From positions 24,171 to 88,170 of the IMG/VR virus record IMGVR_UViG_3300005365_000022: a stretch of 64,000 bases of DNA; one strand, 5' to 3'. Below the pieces are notes generated by a model. It saw only the letters and a list, made by a program, of their open reading frames with translations. It was not told where the DNA came from and ran no database searches. This stretch comes from a virus (lineage: Duplodnaviria; Caudoviricetes). Shown here piece after piece: positions 2,130 to 25,366 of this stretch. Position numbers and translations under genes: made by a program. The first letter of the stretch is position 1; each line of letters opens with the position of its first letter.

Positions 2130-2389
2130 GACGCGCCCCCTGTCAGCTCGAGACACGTGCGTCCCAGCGGCGTGAGCGCCGACATCACGGGGCTCAGACC
2201 GCCGCCGTACGAGTGCACCAGTGCGCGCCGGTGAACCGATCCGTCTATGCGGAACTGCGCGCCGAGCTCGGAATCGACGGTGATGTATCGCTGAGGTCCA
2301 GCCTGCAGGTGACGCAGCCTTGCCACGTGGCATGGCCCGCAGCGCGCCATGATCATCGCGGCGGCCTGGCGCGCCTCGTCGCGCGTCAC
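2126..2389 (-). CDS. Hypothetical protein
   Basis: 87 aa, ATGA-coupled to both neighbours. Confidence 0.5.
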   Translation of the reverse strand: MTRDEARQAAAMIMARCGPCHVARLRHLQAGPQRYITVDSELGAQFRIDGSVHRRALVHSYGGGLSPVMSALTPLGRTCLELTGGAS

Positions 2390-2592
2390 GACACACCACC
2401 TGCCGGCGTCGTCCAGACCACCCGGCCGTGCACCAGGTGGTTGCGGTGGCGGAACTCGTGCCGGCCGTCAGCCGTGCCCATGTACTGCCAGTCCTCGAAG
2501 CCGTTGGGCTGGCTGGACGCGCCGAAATGCGAAGCCAGCGCGGCCCACATGCGCTTCCACTCTTGGCTGTTACGCCTCACCGAAGCGATCAT
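2386..2592 (-). CDS. Hypothetical protein
   Basis: MIASVRRNSQEWKRMW..YMGT..HEFRHR; ATG 2592 overlaps upstream TGA 2589. Confidence 0.5.
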   Translation of the reverse strand: MIASVRRNSQEWKRMWAALASHFGASSQPNGFEDWQYMGTADGRHEFRHRNHLVHGRVVWTTPAGGVS

Positions 2593-2735
2593 CGGATCTC
2601 CGACGTCTTGATGATCGCACCGCTCGAGAGAACCAGCATCCACTCACGGTACTTGCGGACCTCGACGATCTCGAGGTCGTCGCCGCGGTACATCACCTTG
2701 CTGCCGACCATCTGTACTGCGTGTCGTTTCGTCAT
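2589..2735 (-). CDS. 48 aa leaderless ORF (not in ORF track)
   Basis: MTKRHAVQMVGSKVMYRGDDLEIVEVRKYREWMLVLSSGAIIKTSEIR; ATG sits 6 nt after a -10 hexamer and the stop overlaps the next ATG. Confidence 0.5.
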   Translation of the reverse strand: MTKRHAVQMVGSKVMYRGDDLEIVEVRKYREWMLVLSSGAIIKTSEIR

Positions 2736-2789
2736 GCTGGTAACGTAATACGCGCGTTAGCAGGTGTCAAGCGCGAGATTACGCGTTCA
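2733..2789 (-). promoter_or_regulatory. Repeated promoter/operator cassette, copy A
   Basis: Minus strand TTGACA-N17-TACGTT-N6-ATG with CGTAAT/CGTATTACG boxes; near-identical to 25310-25366 and 27808-27864. Confidence 0.75.
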
Positions 2790-2990
2790 CGCGTCGCGGA
2801 TCACGTACCGGTGGCTTGCCCCGCACCGGCGCCGCAGCTCAGCCAGGAACGGCGCTCCGCTGGCCGGCTGAACCGGCCACGATGCCACCTCGGCCTCCAT
2901 CTCGCGATCGCTGTACTCGGCCGTGCCGCCATCGAACCTGGCGAGCTCTACCAGGTGATCGGCGTCCTCGACGAAGTAGAGGATCGTCAT
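2787..2990 (-). CDS. Candidate immunity protein for the MuF-kinase
   Basis: 67 aa, ATGA-coupled to the MuF-kinase stop; function inferred from position only. Confidence 0.4.
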   Translation of the reverse strand: MTILYFVEDADHLVELARFDGGTAEYSDREMEAEVASWPVQPASGAPFLAELRRRCGASHRYVIRDA

Positions 2991-5341
2991 GGCGAACCAT
3001 CCGCGATGGCGTCTGCCGCGGCCCGGCCGGCATCCGAGATTCGGTCGCGCGCGGTGAGGCTCGGCTGCGCCAGAAAGCGCTCCTGGTCGCTCTGCCCCAT
3101 CTGGTCGAAGCGCTGCGGCCTACCGCCCATGGTGACGTGCCCGGGAACCGCCAGCACCGAGGGCTGCTCCTTGAGCAGCGTGGCGCGGTACATCGCGTGT
3201 CGGACGGACTCGTCATCTAGGCCGCGCCGTCGCAAAGTGGCCGCCAGATCGGCCAGGTCGAGGTCTCGAATGCGCGCCTCGGTGGTCGGCAGCAACCCCA
3301 TGCCCACGAACGGCTTGCTCGTGGCGACGGGCTGCTGGATTCCGGCGCGAGACGACGGGAACGCCTGACCGTTGTCGATGGCCACCACGGCCCCGCCTTT
3401 CTTGCGCAGGAAGTTCTCCGGGTGACGATCGCGGTTCCCGGTGACGAAGTCGAGCAGGCGCATCTGCTCGGCGGACTCGCGGTCGATCTTGGTCGCCGAC
3501 CATCCCGGCCGAGCTCGCACGAACGCCTGCACGGACCCCTCGCCGCCTTCGTGGCGGCGGACCGTGGTGGGCGGAACGACGTCGATCCCCATGAGCCGAG
3601 CCACATCGTAGGTGGCCGCCTCGCGCAGGTGCATGGTGCCCGGCTGGATCCCGGTTGGCAGTTCGTCGGCTGCCTCTCCGGACGTCGGCTTCCACACGGC
3701 AGATCCGCCGCCGCGGAACCTGACAACCTTCGACGCGTTGACGCCACCGCCGAGGTCCTTGGTGCTAGTGATCTCGGCGTGCAGCGCGCGCACCGCGGCG
3801 TCCTCGACATCCGGACGCGGCCCGCCGCCGATGCCTGGGGCCGGCCCGCGCTCGCCGCCCTTCGCGAGATGGCCGGCGGGGACCTCAGGCGTCTGCCGCC
3901 ACTGCACGGGGATCGGCTCGTCGAGGTCGGCTGCGGCGTTGAGCCGGGCGGCGTCCGCTGCGCCATTCACGACGAGGTTGTTGCGCGGCGTGACCCCGAT
4001 CTGCACCGGCTGCTCGAGCCCGTCGGCGACCTCCTGGTACGCGCGCTCAGCCCGCTCGAGGTCGGCCTCGTAACCAGTGGGCTCGTACCAGCCGTGGTCG
4101 GCGATCGCCTGCGGGTCGGCCGCCGGGGTGCTGGCCGGGGCGGTGAGATCTCCGTGCTCCGGGATCTCACCGGCCGGGATCTCAGGTGAGATCTCGGCTG
4201 TAACCTTGGGCGACTCGAAGCCGATCGGCAGTGGGCCCGCGCGCTCGGTGTCGGCCTCATCTCCGGCCTGATCGCCCTGGGATTCCTCGGCGGTGGGAGA
4301 CTGGAATCCGATCCCGGTAGGCGCTGGAGATCCCGCCTCGTCGTCCGATGAGATCTCGGCCTGAGATCCCCGGGATCTCATCCACGCCGCGTTAGTCCGC
4401 TGCGCCGCCGTCTCGGTGACCGGCACCCGCCGGCCGTCCTCCCATCGCCAGCCGGGGACGCCCCAGTGGGCGCGCCAAGGCACGAGGACGGCGCGATCGT
4501 TGGGGCGGTTGGGCGGCGAGGTCCACTCGCGGCCGACCAAGGAGTCGCCGACCTCGTCGCCCTGGCGGTTGGTTGGCGGCTGCGTGAACGGCTCGCCGGG
4601 CGGCGCCACCTGGCCGTGCATTGCCTCCGAGTCGACGCCGACGCGGTCGTCCAGCGGCATGCCTTCGTCGCTCACGTGCTCGGTCCAGCGCGACCACATG
4701 TCGCCGTCGAGATCCTCGGCCTGCTCGTCGGCTGCGGCGCGCGCCGACCGGCCGGCGGCCCACGAAAGCTCGGTGCGTACTACACGCTCTGCGCGCCACC
4801 ACTGCATGTCGCCGACGTTCATGACCCGGTCGATCGCCTGCGTGTGCGTCTCCCCGAGCGAGAGCGACGCCCCGAGCTCCTCCTCCATGCGGCCGACGAG
4901 CTGCGCCCCGAACCTCGCCATCGAGGTCGCGTGCACGCGCATCAGGCTTGACACCTGCCCGTCTACCAGCCCGCGGAGCCTGGCGCTCTCGAGCAGCGGC
5001 AGCGAGATCACCGCCCCGCTGAAGTGCTTCTCGAGCGCGGCGGCGTCCTGCAGGAGCGTGCGCGCGGCGTGTACTCCGACCTTCGTGGCGCTCTCCTCGA
5101 CGGCGTCTCCGAGCGGGGCCTGCAGGCGCGCTAGCCCGAGCTTGACCTGCGCGAGCAGCCCGGTCAGCTGCTGGTGCGAGAACGTGCCGGCCGGCGTCGC
5201 CCGGATCCGCCGCGTGACGTCCTCGAGCATCCGGTCGTAGAGCGCCCGCACCGGAGCGATCCCCGTGCTTCGCACGAGGCGCTGCAGCTGGTCCTGCTGG
5301 TCCAGGATGATCGCGCGGTAGGCCGGGGGCAGCGCGGGCAC
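2987..5341 (-). CDS. MuF/SPP1 gp7-like minor head protein with C-terminal PI3/PI4-kinase/HipA-like kinase domain
   Basis: N-half has RAERVVRTE...W...DDRV...MHGQ...PPNRPNDR (MuF pattern); C-end has AVWKP, REAA, LDFVTGNRDRHPENFL and IDNG (atypical kinase motifs). Confidence 0.8.
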   Translation of the reverse strand: MPALPPAYRAIILDQQDQLQRLVRSTGIAPVRALYDRMLEDVTRRIRATPAGTFSHQQLTGLLAQVKLGLARLQAPLGDAVEESATKVGVHAARTLLQDAAALEKHFSGAVISLPLLESARLRGLVDGQVSSLMRVHATSMARFGAQLVGRMEEELGASLSLGETHTQAIDRVMNVGDMQWWRAERVVRTELSWAAGRSARAAADEQAEDLDGDMWSRWTEHVSDEGMPLDDRVGVDSEAMHGQVAPPGEPFTQPPTNRQGDEVGDSLVGREWTSPPNRPNDRAVLVPWRAHWGVPGWRWEDGRRVPVTETAAQRTNAAWMRSRGSQAEISSDDEAGSPAPTGIGFQSPTAEESQGDQAGDEADTERAGPLPIGFESPKVTAEISPEIPAGEIPEHGDLTAPASTPAADPQAIADHGWYEPTGYEADLERAERAYQEVADGLEQPVQIGVTPRNNLVVNGAADAARLNAAADLDEPIPVQWRQTPEVPAGHLAKGGERGPAPGIGGGPRPDVEDAAVRALHAEITSTKDLGGGVNASKVVRFRGGGSAVWKPTSGEAADELPTGIQPGTMHLREAATYDVARLMGIDVVPPTTVRRHEGGEGSVQAFVRARPGWSATKIDRESAEQMRLLDFVTGNRDRHPENFLRKKGGAVVAIDNGQAFPSSRAGIQQPVATSKPFVGMGLLPTTEARIRDLDLADLAATLRRRGLDDESVRHAMYRATLLKEQPSVLAVPGHVTMGGRPQRFDQMGQSDQERFLAQPSLTARDRISDAGRAAADAIADGSP

Positions 5342-13227: not shown

Positions 13228-13461
13228 TCAGCGCGTCCTGGTTGGATCTGGCGGCCGAATCCCGACAATCCGCTTGCCCTTGTTGGCGGCGACCACGAGC
13301 TGGTCGAGCTCCTGATCGAGGATCCACCGAATCCTCGCCTCGCCATCCGGAACCGGATCGCCGTTTACGATCGGCACCTGGTGCGTAGCGCAGGCGGACA
13401 CGATGACGTCGCCGTATTCCTCGCTGCGCTCCCAGACGCATCCGCAGGTCGTGGTGCTCAC
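13228..13461 (-). CDS. Hypothetical protein
   Basis: 77 aa, overlaps the TerL stop (GTGA). Confidence 0.45.
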   Translation of the reverse strand: MSTTTCGCVWERSEEYGDVIVSACATHQVPIVNGDPVPDGEARIRWILDQELDQLVVAANKGKRIVGIRPPDPTRTR

Positions 13462-16130
13462 GTTCGCCTCTTTCGCTTCTGGTAGCCGGCGCCGCTCGTC
13501 GCGAATCGTGCACCTTCGCGGGCCAGCCAGCAGTTGTGGACTGCGATCCCCTCAGCCACGTACGACTCGTCCTCCTCCACGTGGAGATTGAAGACCTGAC
13601 CGGTGTACGGGTGGCTCCTGATGCTGGATAGCCGCACTGCCACCCCTCCGACCTGGGGGATCGAGCAGGAGTTGGTGCGCGTCCTCAGCGGCGCCCATCT
13701 GTCTCCCCAGCGTTGTAGTTCTTCCGGTCGCGCATCGAGTAGCAGTTCGGTCGAGTCCGTAGCTGACAGCGCGAGCTCCTGCGCCGGCTTGTGACCGCAA
13801 GGGATGCCCTGGAACGTTCCTGTTTGATCGAATGGCTGCACCGACGTGCCAAGCCCGAGACGCCACAGGAATTGTTGCATCTGGTATATCAGCGAGCGCG
13901 AGATGCTGACGCCTCGAAGGCGAGGCGTTCCATCCCGATAGCCAAGACAGCCATCACCGACGAACCATCCGCGCACAATCTGTGACCCGGTTAGCGCGGG
14001 CAACGCCATCCACCCCCATGGCAGCGCCTTGTGTTCCTTCTTGCCAAACGGCCTGAACTCGTTGGCCGCGCGCTTCGATTGCACGCTGACGGTCATCCCG
14101 CCGTGGCCGGCCCGCGTGTAGATGCTCGTCTTGGCCCCCCAACGCTTCATTGCATGATCCCGGACGAAGTCGGCCAGGTAGGTCTCTTTCCGGTGAAACG
14201 CGAAGTTCAATTGGTGATCTCCGGCCCAGCCTTCCGCGAGATATAGCCCGGCCAGAAATGCATAGTCGTCGTCTACTGTCGGGGCGATCCATGGCCACGG
14301 TGACACTGGAGCAAGGACAAAGTCGCCTGCCATCTTCCGTCCGGCGCGCAGATCTTCTGCGGGGACAAAGTCCCACGAGGCGCGATCGGGGACGAGTCTA
14401 TTGGTTCTCTCACGCGTCGTCATTCGCGGCAGCGCGCGGTACACCGGATGTTCTCCGGTGACCTGGAGCGTCCGCATGCCCTTAGGCTTGACCTCGAAGA
14501 CGTCGCCCTCGTAGGGCCGCGACATCGTCTGGCTGACCGGACGCCAGCGCCCGCGGTGCGTCAGCACCTGATCGCCGATAACGACGTTCTCGATCGGAAC
14601 CAGACCACGCGCCGTGGTGATCAATTGCCCAGGGGTCAAACAGGCGATGAGCCGATCCCCGGTGTGGCTCTTGGGGTCGTACCGCAGCATCTCACCGATC
14701 AGCGCCCTGACCTCCGGGTGCATGTCTGCCATGATTCCCTTGGTCTCCCCGCCGCGGTTCGGGATAACCCACTTACCGGCGCTGAACTCGATCGCGAGAG
14801 ACTCGATACCGAAGCTCGGGTCGTACTTGTTCTTCCCGGTGTAGAATGCGCGCGTCGGTACAGCGCTCTTCTCATTGACAAACTGCCGGATAAAAAGCTG
14901 GGCTCCGTTGCTCTCTACGATTACCTGTGAGTTGTAGCGGCGGTTCGCGTCAATGATTCGATCGACGAGCTCGGGGCCAGGCCAGCGCCCGGACTCCACG
15001 TCCAACAGCGATCGCACGCCGTCCTTCTCGCGCACGGCGATCGTCACGATCGCGGATAGGTCGGTGCGCTTCTTCCGATGCCGCTTGAGCTCGGCCGCCG
15101 CGATGTCAACGCCGGTCACCGTGCGCCAGCCTGGCGGGACCGCAGCGAGCGAGTACGCCAGATCGACGCCGTCGCCGTTGGCCAGCGCCTTGTTGATGTA
15201 CGCCTCCTTGAAGCGCCGATCGGCGTCAGCGACCGGATCGCAGAACATCGAGCGCCGGCTCTCGATCGGTCCGCGGTTCTCGATCTCGGCCTCGATGCGC
15301 TCCTCGGGCCACATCTCGGGCCAGGCGAGATTCCCCGCGGCGTCGCGCACCGGGAACTTCTTCGAGAACGTGCGCCGCTCGGAGGCGTAGCGGTGCATGG
15401 CGTCGTCTGGGTGCCAAGCGTTGCCGACGAACCAGATCCGGCCGCGCGTCGTCCGCCGGCCCTCGATGGTGCTCTTGAGCCAGCCGTAGTACTTATCGCG
15501 CTGCTCCTCAGTGTGCGTGTTCTCCGCCGTGAGGTAGTCGTCGACGATGATCAGGTCGTAGCGGCCACCGAGCACGTTGCCGCCGAATCCGCACGCCTGG
15601 ACCGTCGGGTCTTTCGCGCCGATCGAAGAGCGCTTGACGATGAATGCCTCGTTGGTCCACAGCCCGCTGCTGTCGCTCTTGTCGGGCTGGATCCCGGGGA
15701 ACACCAGCCGGAACTCGACGCTGCGCTCGATGTAGCCCTTGAGCGACCGGACGATCTTCCGCGCCGGCCCCGCGGCGCTCGACAGGATCAGGATCCGGAT
15801 GTTGGGGTTCTTGCCGATCTCCCAAAGCACGCGGCCTACCGACACCTCCGAGGTCTTCGCGAGCTCGGTCGCCGACCACAGCACCACGCGATCGTGCTCG
15901 GTGAGGATGTCGTGCCACTCCTCGTGGATCGTCGCGAGCCGCACCGGCTCGTTGGTGTCCTCGGTGCGCAGCACGCTCTGGCAGAACACCGCGGGGTCCC
16001 GCTGGGCGGTCTCGGCGAGCCGCGCCAGCGCCGGCCCGAGCTGCTGAGCCTCGTCGATCAGCCGGCGGTGATCGCGTCGATCAGTTCGCGTCACCGGGCT
16101 CCACGCCGAGTTCGGGCTCTGCGTCTTCAT
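13458..16130 (-). CDS. terL: Terminase large subunit containing an intein
   Basis: ATPase half (LAKTS, Walker B LIIVDD, GNAWHPDD); RNaseH-like nuclease (TGVDIA, VESNGAQ, HTGDRLIA/CW); intein at residues 497-866. Confidence 0.9.
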   Translation of the reverse strand: MKTQSPNSAWSPVTRTDRRDHRRLIDEAQQLGPALARLAETAQRDPAVFCQSVLRTEDTNEPVRLATIHEEWHDILTEHDRVVLWSATELAKTSEVSVGRVLWEIGKNPNIRILILSSAAGPARKIVRSLKGYIERSVEFRLVFPGIQPDKSDSSGLWTNEAFIVKRSSIGAKDPTVQACGFGGNVLGGRYDLIIVDDYLTAENTHTEEQRDKYYGWLKSTIEGRRTTRGRIWFVGNAWHPDDAMHRYASERRTFSKKFPVRDAAGNLAWPEMWPEERIEAEIENRGPIESRRSMFCDPVADADRRFKEAYINKALANGDGVDLAYSLAAVPPGWRTVTGVDIAAAELKRHRKKRTDLSAIVTIAVREKDGVRSLLDVESGRWPGPELVDRIIDANRRYNSQVIVESNGAQLFIRQFVNEKSAVPTRAFYTGKNKYDPSFGIESLAIEFSAGKWVIPNRGGETKGIMADMHPEVRALIGEMLRYDPKSHTGDRLIACLTPGQLITTARGLVPIENVVIGDQVLTHRGRWRPVSQTMSRPYEGDVFEVKPKGMRTLQVTGEHPVYRALPRMTTRERTNRLVPDRASWDFVPAEDLRAGRKMAGDFVLAPVSPWPWIAPTVDDDYAFLAGLYLAEGWAGDHQLNFAFHRKETYLADFVRDHAMKRWGAKTSIYTRAGHGGMTVSVQSKRAANEFRPFGKKEHKALPWGWMALPALTGSQIVRGWFVGDGCLGYRDGTPRLRGVSISRSLIYQMQQFLWRLGLGTSVQPFDQTGTFQGIPCGHKPAQELALSATDSTELLLDARPEELQRWGDRWAPLRTRTNSCSIPQVGGVAVRLSSIRSHPYTGQVFNLHVEEDESYVAEGIAVHNCWLAREGARFATSGAGYQKRKRRT
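13533..14642 (-). mobile_element. Intein (370 aa) with LAGLIDADG homing endonuclease
   Basis: Block A CLTPGQLITTARG; block B VTGEHP; LAGLYLAEG and RGWFVGDG dodecapeptides; VFNLHV..ESYVAEGIAVHN followed by Cys+1. Confidence 0.92.
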
Positions 16131-17315: not shown

Positions 17316-17702
17316 TCATAGGTCGTCAGCCGTGAGCTCCCCAGGCGGGCGCCACCCGCGGCCACGCAGCGCCCCGCTCGCGATCCACTCGACGAGGGGC
17401 GGCAGGTCCAGCGCCAGCGTGCCGATCGGGTACCGCGGGTCGAGCACCGGGTAGAGCTGCACCGGCGGGTCTCCGAGGTCTGCGGCGTCGCGGATCCCGA
17501 AGTACGATAGGTGGCCGGCGCGCGCCATGCCCGCGAGGATCTCCGCGACCGCGACCTCGCGCCCGGCAACCAGATCCGGCGTGACCGGTCGGCCGGCGCG
17601 CTCGCGCACCGCGTGGACAGCAACCCACTGCAGCAGGACGCCAAGGCAATGCCGCTCTCCCCGCTGCCGCTCCCGGATGGCCTTCTGCGCCGCGAGCTTC
17701 AT
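17316..17702 (-). CDS. Hypothetical protein
   Basis: 128 aa; preceded by a 42 aa ATGA-coupled ORF (17700-17828). Confidence 0.45.
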   Translation of the reverse strand: MKLAAQKAIRERQRGERHCLGVLLQWVAVHAVRERAGRPVTPDLVAGREVAVAEILAGMARAGHLSYFGIRDAADLGDPPVQLYPVLDPRYPIGTLALDLPPLVEWIASGALRGRGWRPPGELTADDL

Positions 17703-17827
17703 CTCAAAAGGACCCCTCTTACCACCAGCGCAGTCCGCTCACGCTCGGCGATCTCCGAGGGCTGTTCGACATTACATGGGTCATGTGTTGACTGGTCGAA
17801 CTGCCGAGGGGCTCGGACGTTACCCAT

Positions 17828-17870
17828 GCCGGGTAGGATTACCGTAATACGCAATCCACCAGGCGTCAAG
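17828..17870 (-). promoter_or_regulatory. Repeated promoter/operator copy upstream of the packaging operon
   Basis: TTGACG-N17-TACGGT with GCGTATTACG box. Confidence 0.65.
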
Positions 17871-17875
17871 CTATC

Positions 17876-18952
17876 GGGTGGTACGGGCTCGAAACGTCGC
17901 GTCGTACGGCAGGGAGCGGAATAGGCTAGGCATGTCGCGTGGAGTCGTCTCGTGTGGTGACGGGTTGCTACGCGTTGGCATGTCGCTCCGGTCTACTATG
18001 CGTTCGCTGTTGGGATGGGGTGTTCTGAGTAGTCGCTCCGTACGGGCGGGTGACGACGTGGGACGGCTCGTCGCAACAGCACGGATGGGCGCGGTTTGGG
18101 TAGTCGCATCGCAGCTGCGCCTGCATGGCTCGGCATGTCGCTCGGGCACGGCCAGGTGCACGTTGGGAAGTCGCGAGGCATCGGAGCGGCAGGCGCGGGT
18201 GTTGGGCTGGCCAGTCGCCACGGTCTGCGATGGTCCGGTTTGTCGCACTGCTCGCGCTCGGTGTGCCCTGGCCAGTCGCCATGAGGCGGTCCGGTCCGGT
18301 TTGTCGCGCTGTTCTGTCGTGCCTTGACCTTGGTAGTCGCTATGGGGATGCTGTAGCACGGTCCGTCGCGATGCAGCGGCACGGTCAGTTCTGGGCTGGT
18401 CCGTCGCGATGCAGGGGTATAGAAGGGCCGGCATTGTCTCGCTGTCAGGTGGTGACCAGGCATGACCAGTCGCTCGGGCGGGGCAGGGAGCGGAAGGGCA
18501 GGCATTGTCGCGTCGAGACGGCTTGGTCGGATCAGTCGCCTCGCGTAGAACCGTCGTTGCTCGGGCTTGTCGCCTTGCTCGTAACGGTCTCGGGTTGGGA
18601 AGTCGCCGGGCCCAGGAAAGGACGGGCCGGAATAGTCACGATGACGCGAAGTGATCGCGAAGGATAGGCAAGTCGCAGCGCACGCGAGACGATTTCGATC
18701 GGCCAGACAAGTCGTGCAGCCTTGACATAGGTAGTCGCCCAGCATGGATGAGCGAAGGATAGTCGCTGTGGGCGGATCAGACTGGAAAGGACACGTCGCT
18801 ATGTTGCTTGTCGCACTGCGCGGCGAGGACACGGATAGAGGACACGGATAGTCGCCACGGCGAGGCCGGCCGCCGTTACGAGTAGGGTAGTCACGCAGCA
18901 TCCGATCGACTTGTCACCAGGGCCTCGCGGCTCACCCGGCCTGCCCCGTCAC
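17876..18952. repeat. Non-CRISPR periodic array, about 30 units of GTCRC + NNN + n x (G/GG-led pentamer); putative guide-RNA array
   Basis: GTCGC or a variant at 17896, 17934, 17982, 18032, 18070, 18103, 18137, 18170, 18214, 18242, 18275, 18303, 18336, 18365, 18403, 18436, 18469, 18507, 18535, 18569, 18602, 18635, 18672, 18711, 18734, 18762, 18795, 18810, 18851, 18890, 18913. 20 of 30 intervals are 5n+3 (23/28/33/38/48) and 6 more are 5n+4 (hand count). Confidence 0.85.
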
Positions 18953-18955
18953 GGG

Positions 18956-19741
18956 CTACGCTGCGGCGGTGTCGCTGACGCCGAGATCCTCCATCGACAG
19001 GATATCGAACTTGCCGATCCCCTGTGAGCGAGACGCGCCGATCCCGTGCTCTGCGGCGTGCAGCAGCGACGCGGCGAGCGATTCGTCTGGTAGCTTGCCT
19101 TCGATCTCCTTCGCGATGGCGATCTCGAACTCGATGATCGGCTGCTTCAGGTACTCGTTGCGCTTGATCGACGCGAGCTTCTGCCCGCGGATTTCGCTGT
19201 GACACACCGACGTCGCAATGCCGTCGGGAGCAGCGCCGAGATAAATATAATCGCGCTCAACGGGCGCAGAGCCCTCCGGCGGCACGCTGTACACGAACAG
19301 CGCCTCGGCGATCGACACGCGGGATCCGAGGTGGGCCTGGCGAAACCCGAGAACCGACCAGTTTTCCTTGAGCATCGCCTTCAGGTTGTTGGTCGGGAAC
19401 CAGATCCCATCCTTTCCCGGGCGCCGGTGGAACTGGCAAATCCCCTCCTCGGATACCCGCTCCGCGGCCTCTGCGCGCGCCGTCGGGTCGTCCGGGATGG
19501 CCTCGATCTGGTCGCCGAGTCCTCGAGCGGCGAGCATCGCGTTCGCTGCGTCGAGGTGGCGCGGCTGACCGCCGTACAGGAGCTCGCGGAGCTGGATCTT
19601 GATGCGGATCCTCCTCCACTTGTTGGAGGCCACCTGCTTCAGCAGGTTGTCCCACTGCATGCGGTTCTTGGGCTGGATGATCGCTGGTGTCTTCGGAGAT
19701 GGGGCGTCGGGGGCGTCCGGCGCTTTAGGCTTGCGTGCCAT
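18956..19741 (-). CDS. Stand-alone RAMP-superfamily (Cas7-like) protein
   Basis: 261 aa from ATG 19741 after an AAGGA RBS; N-terminal strand RIRIKIQLRELLYGG; IWFPTNNLKAMLKE (cf. RAMP iPgSslKGalR); C-terminal G-rich loop HGIGASRSQGIGKF. Confidence 0.8.
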   Translation of the reverse strand: MARKPKAPDAPDAPSPKTPAIIQPKNRMQWDNLLKQVASNKWRRIRIKIQLRELLYGGQPRHLDAANAMLAARGLGDQIEAIPDDPTARAEAAERVSEEGICQFHRRPGKDGIWFPTNNLKAMLKENWSVLGFRQAHLGSRVSIAEALFVYSVPPEGSAPVERDYIYLGAAPDGIATSVCHSEIRGQKLASIKRNEYLKQPIIEFEIAIAKEIEGKLPDESLAASLLHAAEHGIGASRSQGIGKFDILSMEDLGVSDTAAA

Positions 19742-19780
19742 GATGGTGTCCTTGTTGGTGTCGGCACCCGAGCCGACGTT

Positions 19781-19845
19781 GCATACTTGCGTATTACGCA
19801 TACGCGTGTCAACTACGAACGCGTAATACATCTACCGTCAACGCG
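19781..19845 (-). promoter_or_regulatory. Promoter/operator upstream of the RAMP gene
   Basis: Two minus-strand TTGAC hexamers and two copies of the CGTAATAC/GTATTACG box. Confidence 0.6.
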
Positions 19846-24029: not shown

Positions 24030-24307
24030 CGCGTCCTCGCGTTGGCGTACTTCGCCCAGCGCTCGGCGTCCTCCCATGGGTTACCCTTGGTCGGGTCAGG
24101 CTCGAACGGCTTGAGCCCTGGGTCCTGGCTGCCGCTGATTCCCGCCAGGAACGCGCTCAGGCACCCGCCGTTCTCGAGCTGGCGCCGGACGAGTTCGCGC
24201 TGCTGCGCGGTCAGGCGAGGATGCCGGCGAGGCACCCCAATACCCGGCGAGGTGACCTCTACCAGATCTTCGGTGTCGATTCGATACAGCTGCGGTGTGG
24301 TGCGCAT
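24026..24307 (-). CDS. Hypothetical protein
   Basis: MRTTPQLYRIDT... Confidence 0.4.
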   Translation of the reverse strand: MRTTPQLYRIDTEDLVEVTSPGIGVPRRHPRLTAQQRELVRRQLENGGCLSAFLAGISGSQDPGLKPFEPDPTKGNPWEDAERWAKYANARTR

Positions 24308-25067: not shown

Positions 25068-25312
25068 AACTCCTGCCCGTCGGCAGCCATCATCGCCGCG
25101 CGATCGAAGGCGCGGTCTACGGTGGCCGCGCGCGCGATCCGCGACAGGCGACCATTGACGCGGTGGGTACCGATGCCATGCTCGCGGTCGAGCCGGTCAG
25201 CGAGCTGCTCGGCAAGCTCGGGGTTGAGCACCGGGCGGGATAGCTGCGGGCCGACGCCGGGGCCGGTCACGAGGTTGGACGCGAGGTGCGAGTAGCGGTC
25301 TGAGCTCGTCAT
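25064..25312 (-). CDS. Leaderless hypothetical protein
   Basis: ATG 25312 lies 6 nt after the TACGTT -10. Confidence 0.5.
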   Translation of the reverse strand: MTSSDRYSHLASNLVTGPGVGPQLSRPVLNPELAEQLADRLDREHGIGTHRVNGRLSRIARAATVDRAFDRAAMMAADGQEF

Positions 25313-25366
25313 GCTGGTAACGTAATACGCGCGCGTCATGGTGTCAAGCGATAGATTACGTGTTCA
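25310..25366 (-). promoter_or_regulatory. Repeated promoter/operator cassette, copy B
   Basis: CATGCTGGTAACGTAATACG..GTGTCAAGCGATAGATTACGTGTTCA; TTGACA-N17-TACGTT on minus. Confidence 0.75.

Follow-up and report, generated by a model that had tools for sequence, protein, structure and literature searches.

The IMG/VR virus record IMGVR_UViG_3300005365_000022 (Duplodnaviria; Caudoviricetes) is a linear sequence of 88,170 bp with a GC content of about 67% and an estimated completeness of 69%. We analyzed a 64,000-nt stretch of this record (positions 24,171 to 88,170, hereafter the window) and found a locus of this high-GC soil phage that is very probably a VIPR (Viral Interference Programmable Repeat) system, with one Vipr protein and a multi-guide array. 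The array is inherited together with the vipr gene, has a period of 5 nt and is non-coding. VIPR was described in a bioRxiv preprint (10.64898/2026.04.26.720920), which reports phage-borne Vipr RAMPs with vrRNAs made of GGY/NN pentamers, DNA recognition that skips one base per unit, and seven VIPR types with several array architectures. In the published structures (10.64898/2026.04.26.720927) one protomer covers one pentamer; G1 is read by H17 and D177, G2 by R138 and W178, and the pyrimidine at position 3 by a pocket that includes R179. A sequence-only reading of the same DNA had pointed to VIPR and suggested that this locus may be a distinct variant. That system is in print, and the protein family found here is profile-homologous to a validated member, the Vipr of Escherichia phage SUSP1. 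"Distinct variant" is a fair description if it is understood as a variant of the published kind. Since the wider family aligns profile-to-profile with the validated SUSP1 Vipr, we regard the system as VIPR and not as a new kind.

The vipr gene (18956..19741, minus strand) encodes a stand-alone Cas7-like RAMP of 261 aa, as judged from its open reading frame (ORF), sequence motifs, an AlphaFold2 model, and Foldseek, VIA-align and hhalign comparisons. A longer ORF at 18956-19831 (minus strand) holds both GIWFPTNNLKAMLKE and GIGASRSQGIGKF, the two motifs from which a RAMP-like protein had been proposed. The start was assigned to the ATG at 19741, where the homologues of 255 to 261 aa begin, and the TAG stop is at 18956-18958. 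Pfam and PHROGs searches with the Vipr protein gave no match, and a sequence search of the PDB with the family profile found nothing meaningful. None of the 90 close homologues is named. A profile search of 1.84 billion cluster representatives found 984 relatives at E ≤ 1e-3, and a search of IMG/VR found only one; a scan of the contigs of 185k species genomes found no relative. Megablast of 12 kb against GenBank phages gave no match.

Modeled by AlphaFold2 with 52 homologues, the protein reached a pLDDT of 85 and a pTM of 0.77, while a single-sequence fold without homologues was useless (pLDDT 35). The model has the architecture of a RAMP, with an RRM core, a glycine-rich loop and a thumb hairpin. 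Its elements are b1 (residues 42-51), helix-1 (117-130, sequence NNLKAMLKENW), a long hairpin or thumb (174-199), a helix (219-232), the G-loop (233-243, HGIGASRSQGIG) and b4 (245-255). In a Foldseek search against the PDB, a check that the sequence-only reading had proposed, the top matches were all Cas7-type RAMPs (Cmr4, Csm3 or type VII Cas7) with E values of about 1e-7. In a wide VIA-align search all 26 of the top 26 rows were CRISPR RAMPs (Z 11.0 to 7.6), and the best matches in BFVD were viral stand-alone RAMPs (E 5e-13 to 1e-7). We are therefore confident that the protein, as modeled, is a Cas7-like RAMP. His228 and His232 flank the G-loop; they are invariant or nearly so in the close clade and are not conserved in the wider family. 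That Vipr may process its own guides with these two residues is speculation.

The validated SUSP1 Vipr (YP_009199429) was located at NC_028808 28474-29061 on the minus strand, with GGT-NN repeats on the gene strand. A single-sequence comparison of our protein with SUSP1 Vipr was not significant. When a broad family of 92 sequences (query included) was compared by hhalign with 28 SUSP1-type Viprs, the two profiles matched with a probability of 95.7% and an E value of 8.5e-9 over 138 columns. The match is collinear from helix-1 (GIW.P.NN.KA.LKE versus G.YIPG.NI.A.L) to the G-loop, and the pyrimidine-pocket residue R179 of SUSP1 corresponds to Arg238, which is invariant. By this profile alignment the 261-aa protein belongs to the Vipr superfamily.

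The array lies at 17876..18917, with its G-bearing strand on the plus strand, and was delimited by unit parsing, base composition and unit length. It consists of about 31 units, each with the form 3 nt + n × (G-R-n-N-N) + GTCGC. Exact GTCGC anchors start at plus-strand positions 17896, 17934, 17982, 18032, 18070, 18103, 18137, 18170, 18214, 18242, 18275, 18303, 18336, 18365, 18403, 18469, 18507, 18535, 18569, 18602, 18672, 18734, 18762, 18795, 18810 and 18851. Five further anchors are one-base variants (GTCTC at 18436, GTCAC at 18635, GTCGT at 18711, GTCAC at 18890 and GTCAC at 18913). All 26 exact copies within 17896-18855 are on the plus strand, compared with a window-wide density of about 3.4 per kb per strand. 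Some 30 units with a GTCRC boundary had been proposed. The array is real and stands next to the gene as claimed; its length is 1.04 kb and not 1.08 kb, and the vipr stop codon does not abut it. The last boundary motif, GTCAC, ends at 18917, and a 38-nt spacer with a small CCCG-loop-CGGG hairpin (18918..18955, conserved in the related locus L001) separates it from the TAG stop.

G autocorrelation at lag 5 is +0.28 in the array, 6 standard deviations above the mean of all 1-kb windows (-0.011, standard deviation 0.048), and this period-5 tract is unique within the 88-kb record. At lag 3 the value is -0.05; the ORFs that can be drawn over the array are therefore not genes. The unit length follows a 5n+3 rule in 20 of the 31 units, most commonly 33, 38 and 28 nt. 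Position 1 of the window pentamers is G in 127/163 and position 2 is G in 78/163, with positions 3 to 5 mixed, which bears out the earlier description of the repeat as G(G)N-NN. An Rfam search of both strands of the array (hammerhead included) found no family. RNA folding of the units and the spacer showed no excess over shuffled sequences (z -0.7 to +1.4), and neither strand of the array has excess secondary structure. Many relatives carry a hairpin at the vipr-array spacer, and in L034 it is a full intrinsic terminator.

For comparison, 45 related loci were fetched (given here by L numbers); array statistics were computed on 26 arrays and neighbouring genes were surveyed in 24 loci of at least 3.5 kb. 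A period-5 tract adjoins vipr wherever the flanking DNA suffices. It is seen in about 30 metagenomic loci, down to about 31% protein identity (L092). The array is almost always just downstream of vipr, the exception being L005 where it is upstream. In every locus, L005 and L092 included, the G-bearing strand is opposite vipr. Both the proposed check on homologues with adjacent arrays and the claim that the G-led strand is opposite the gene thus hold in about 30 homologues, all with the same relative orientation. GTCGC ranks first among the 5-mers in 23 of the 26 arrays and no lower than fourth in any. Anchor-to-anchor spacings equal 3 modulo 5 in 312 of 453 cases, with peaks at 28, 33, 38, 43, 48 and 53 nt. 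In the 5n+3 units of the 26 loci position 1 is G in 93%, position 2 is G in 64% and A in 21% (purine 85%), position 3 is weakly C, and positions 4 and 5 are free. The pentamer preceding the anchor is typically GGCtt. No conserved protein gene other than vipr was found in the 24 loci surveyed; the terminase is among the neighbours that are not conserved. In some subclades a small extra gene is found between vipr and the array. In one subclade, L022 (2960-3300) and L032 (3780-4160) share such a conserved gene of about 115 to 125 aa with the motif YPEDGSLS.LFIGHDGRT, a candidate vap-like accessory; L023 has a different small gene at this place. L094/L095 (2760-3000), from a contig of about 48% GC, encode a distant Vipr relative of 203 aa with a period-5 tract of GGACA-type motifs in the 5' leader of the gene, another array flavour within the same superfamily.

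The content of the array turns over between close relatives. About 10 units are common to the window and to L006 and L007 in the same order (97% and 96% protein identity, respectively), and the rest have no counterpart. The window and L001 (89% protein identity) have no unit in common. Between close relatives the arrays show indels of 1 nt, of 13 nt and of whole units (5n+3); a 48-nt unit of the window is a fusion of two L006 units via a 13-nt deletion. We selected 22 orthologous unit pairs of equal length and no more than 20% difference, well clear of the chance distribution. Substitutions at pentamer positions 1 to 5 were 5/112, 21/112, 22/112, 11/112 and 6/112, respectively, and 0/110 in the anchor. 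Positions 2 and 3 together changed in 43/224 cases versus 17/224 for positions 4 and 5, a 2.9-fold difference (Fisher p = 4e-4). Slower change at positions 4 and 5 is as expected if these two positions specify a conserved target.

By analogy with the characterized systems, Vipr protomers would polymerise on the array RNA, one per pentamer. Within its pentamer, each protomer would bind the fixed position or positions and leave the two final bases exposed for gapped pairing with double-stranded DNA. A unit of 4 to 9 pentamers would then read a footprint of about 12 to 27 bp. Units of this size are plausible guides, because a six-unit, 18-bp footprint is functional in SUSP1 (10.64898/2026.10.15.759431). 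Binding may silence genes of rival phages or other mobile elements. GTCGC closes each unit; judged from the anatomy of the array, it is most likely a handle or boundary that separates guides, or a start/stop signal for the filament. It inserts a 3-nt phase shift, since GTCGC is in the pentamer frame of one unit and its GC in that of the next. A similar scheme had been put forward before, in which each pentamer binds one protomer, its two final bases carry the information and GTCRC marks the boundary; the 5n+3 rule, the slower positions 4-5 and the turnover of cassettes are consistent with it.

The best structural matches to our Vipr are the CRISPR Cas7 backbone subunits (Csm3, Cmr4, type VII Cas7, Csf2 and the domains of Cas7-11), with Z 11.0 to 9.2 over about 155 to 170 residues and 10 to 16% identity. 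Those subunits polymerise on a guide with a fixed nucleotide step, and the same is proposed here; the CRISPR guide step is 6 nt whereas the step here is 5 nt. A CRISPR class 1 effector combines Cas7, Cas5, a large subunit and Cas6 with a repeat-spacer array. This locus has a single RAMP gene, no Cas5, Cas6, Cas10 or Cas1/2 and no repeat-spacer array, and it is not a CRISPR-Cas class 1 effector. No CRISPR-like tandem repeats were found within the 64-kb window, and one RAMP gene is present in the 88-kb record (other cas families were not scanned one by one), in line with the earlier report of a lone RAMP without a palindromic CRISPR repeat.

The closest experimentally known relatives are the VIPR type II systems (SUSP1 and a Pseudomonas fulva prophage). 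Both they and our locus have a phage-borne stand-alone RAMP with an RRM core, G-loop and thumb hairpin, next to a non-coding period-5 tract in which fixed bases are followed by two bases, putatively informative in our locus, with no cas genes; guide content differs between close relatives in both. The proteins differ in size: SUSP1 Vipr has 195 aa, and ours, with 261 aa, is extended at the N terminus and carries an insertion (residues 52-112). The G-loop is GDWRP in SUSP1 and GA.RSQG here. SUSP1 carries four vrRNAs of 9 to 16 repeats, compared with about 31 units of 4 to 9 pentamers here; its vrRNAs end in a pseudoknotted tail of about 40 nt, and our units in the 5-nt GTCGC boundary with its +3 phase shift. 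The SUSP1 pentamer is GGY/NN, here the more degenerate G-R-n/NN. The G strand is the gene strand in SUSP1 and is opposite the gene here. SUSP1 has vap1 in addition to Vipr and vrRNAs, and no vap gene is conserved here. The locus is therefore not VIPR type II. According to the accessible text of the VIPR preprint (10.64898/2026.04.26.720920), vrRNAs can stand back to back so that the end of one marks the start of the next, and fixed positions can be degenerate, both as found here. It lists seven types and six vap genes, which implies one type without an accessory gene; none is conserved in our loci. The "staggered arrays with overlapping vrRNAs" and NNNGG-type repeats in that text may be this clade, and the same text makes no mention of a GTCGC boundary, a 5n+3 rule or antisense placement. 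The kind of system is already published, and the array layout of this clade differs from that of the published type II.

Several results weigh against the assignment to VIPR. The narrow-family profile aligns only weakly with the 28-sequence SUSP1 family (E 0.003). The SUSP1 residues that read G1 and G2, D177 and W178, align to Ala236 and Ser237. Three hallmarks of type II are missing: a vrRNA in sense orientation, its structured 3' tail of about 40 nt, and vap1. The 22 unit pairs of the substitution test are not phylogenetically independent. A gapped search for targets of the NN positions, another of the proposed checks, was carried out on a limited scale: with NN or NNN codes and skips of 0 to 3, matches in the phage's own genome and the 45 loci (0.26 Mb, too small a search space) showed no enrichment over order-shuffled guides. 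When IMG/VR was scanned for exact gapped matches to three guides, the counts were 0, 0 and 46, nothing beyond chance under an exact-match requirement that was too strict. The guide with 46 matches is the 48-nt fusion unit of the window (an 8-pentamer pattern). These matches are attributed to chance because they are mostly in contigs of 23 to 53% GC. The only high-GC contigs among them are L057 (8410-8432, 64% GC) and L064 (1413-1435, 61% GC). A unit of L023/L024 with the pairs CT GA GA GT GT CT GC matches the region encoding GKFD in the vipr genes of L016, L022 and L032. It was rejected as a vipr-targeting guide and is probably a chance match; the skip falls at codon position 1 and not at the wobble base, where VIPR targets in coding DNA of rival elements usually have it, and about 20 one-mismatch matches are expected.

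Within the VIPR reading, the main question is which strand gives the guide. We lean slightly to the G-bearing strand, at about an even chance, because the motif, with G at position 1 (93%), a purine at position 2 (85%) and a weakly preferred pyrimidine at position 3, resembles an eroded G-G-Y. If this strand is used, the array is always convergent (antisense) to vipr. The other candidate is a gene-sense transcript, a reading that we consider a serious one although it falls somewhat below an even chance. The array would then be in the 3' untranslated region (UTR) of vipr (the 5' UTR in L005), with a C-based scaffold (NN followed by n-Y-C), units opened by GC-GAC, and a specificity for the fixed base that has shifted away from guanine; the apparent strand paradox would vanish. 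Much of the layout agrees with it. GCGAC is on the gene strand in all of about 30 loci, with the array downstream or (L005) upstream, and the orientation to vipr is constant although the gene beyond the array varies and may be on either strand. In loci such as L001 and L007 the array directly adjoins the start codon or ribosome-binding site (RBS) of the next sense gene; in L005 it fills the interval between the stop of the preceding sense gene and the vipr RBS. Such wedged arrays leave little room for an antisense promoter, so that sense transcription across the array seems to be required. The placement mimics the 5' and 3' UTR vrRNAs of SUSP1, and the order vipr, small sense gene, array in some subclades is like vipr-vap1-vrRNAs of SUSP1. 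The loss of the G-reading D177 and W178, with R179 of the pyrimidine pocket kept, also fits a changed scaffold, and non-canonical fixed triplets with C at position 3 (GAC/NN, CAC/NN) have been published (10.64898/2026.10.21.760802).

Other observations speak against a gene-sense guide. All characterized vrRNAs are G-based. G-R-y/NN fits the N-R-Y of every published motif, whereas n-Y-C/NN conflicts with it at position 2. In L034 the strong intrinsic terminator between vipr and the array acts in the sense direction, and at the far end, where a promoter of the array would sit, a promoter-like TTCACA-17-AATACT faces the array on its G strand, although chance alone would yield one match of this kind. 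In L011, L014 and L032 the far neighbouring gene is encoded on the G strand and could be a source of G-strand transcription. Two kinds of evidence do not discriminate. Off-frame units keep the register beside both anchors and slip in mid-unit. Nor does a gapped target search help, since the pattern equals its own reverse complement when both strands are searched. As a tentative proposal, held with slightly less assurance than the gene-sense transcript itself, each phage would carry gene-sense guides on a C scaffold, about 30 mini-guides with a footprint of 12 to 27 bp, split at a 5-nt boundary instead of by tails or ribozymes. If the guide is gene-sense, Vipr can be retuned to a different scaffold letter; if it is the G strand, these arrays work from a convergent antisense position.

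Two readings without a guide RNA were also weighed against VIPR. In the first, the array works as DNA, with GTCGC as binding sites (pac or a replication iteron) upstream of the terminase module and the RAMP gene as a bystander. The array is indeed just upstream of packaging genes in the window and in its four closest relatives. Across the 24 loci, however, vipr is the only gene that travels with the array and terminase is not a conserved neighbour; spacing steps of 5 nt (28, 33, 38, 43) keep no helical phase, and the units vary extremely between phages whose proteins are 97% identical. We consider a DNA-site function very improbable. A protein-coding tract can practically be dismissed: long open frames are present (a 301-aa ORF at 17996-18901 on the minus strand, other overlapping ORFs, and a 346-aa JGI call over the L001 array), but they easily arise by chance at 65 to 70% GC, the period is 5 and not 3, and the 1-nt, 13-nt and whole-unit indels between close relatives break any frame. 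The call in L001 (1609-2649), a public "hypothetical protein", falls wholly within the guide array and is an artefact of the kind common in the annotation of high-GC DNA. Recognition of such arrays in genome annotation flags spurious "genes" of this kind.

As a class of RNA-guided DNA recognition VIPR is only months old, and experiments have so far worked it out for G-G-Y guides with long tails only. The clade described here packs many very short guides behind a 5-nt punctuation and lacks the SUSP1 residues that read two guanines. It bears on the engineering of compact DNA binders that can be programmed, on how the origins of CRISPR are modelled, and on the question of how minimal a guide and its boundary can be.

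The region upstream of vipr (19742..19837, minus strand) contains TTGAC motifs and an inverted repeat (19791-19804 / 19816-19829) with 14-nt arms that are 86% complementary, as seen in the sequence, and is a putative promoter/operator. The sequence-only reading had given the gene its own copy of a phage promoter/operator box. This is partly borne out upstream of vipr, where a GTAATACGC-type motif is found with the 14-nt inverted repeat (19791-19829), with related boxes at about 2745, 17844 and 25322; the copy on the array side points away from the array. The GTAATACGC-type motif has 11 matches in the window versus 4.6 expected, and none of 100 shuffled sequences reached 11. At the far edge of the array there is a promoter-like box (17828..17875, minus strand; TTGACG-N17-TACGGT) that aligns with the boxes at about 2745 and 25322. 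It faces a 42-aa ORF and the packaging genes; it delimits the array and does not belong to the system. As a promoter of the array it was rejected for its opposite orientation. Scans for sigma-70 promoters in the window, L035, L005 and L042 found none. The box is absent from L001 and L007, whose arrays abut the start codon of the next gene.

The three boxes of about 50 nt (~2733-2790, 25310-25365 and 17828-17875) share a minus-strand TTGAC(A/G)-N17-TACG(T/G)T, with an ATG about 6 nt after it in two copies; those at about 2745 and 25322 are just upstream of minus-strand ATGs. The box resembles a phage promoter that would yield transcripts with a short leader or none. The 42-aa ORF (17699-17827, minus strand), whose stop overlaps the start of the next gene (ATGA), is absent from L001 and L007. 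L006 has a 735-nt insertion (2281-3015) relative to the window, between the orthologues of two genes after the array. Within the 890-aa large terminase (13458-16130, minus strand) there appears to be an intein that includes a homing-endonuclease domain; the Pfam domains recorded for its L001 orthologue are Hint_2 (weak) and LAGLIDADG_3 (faint).

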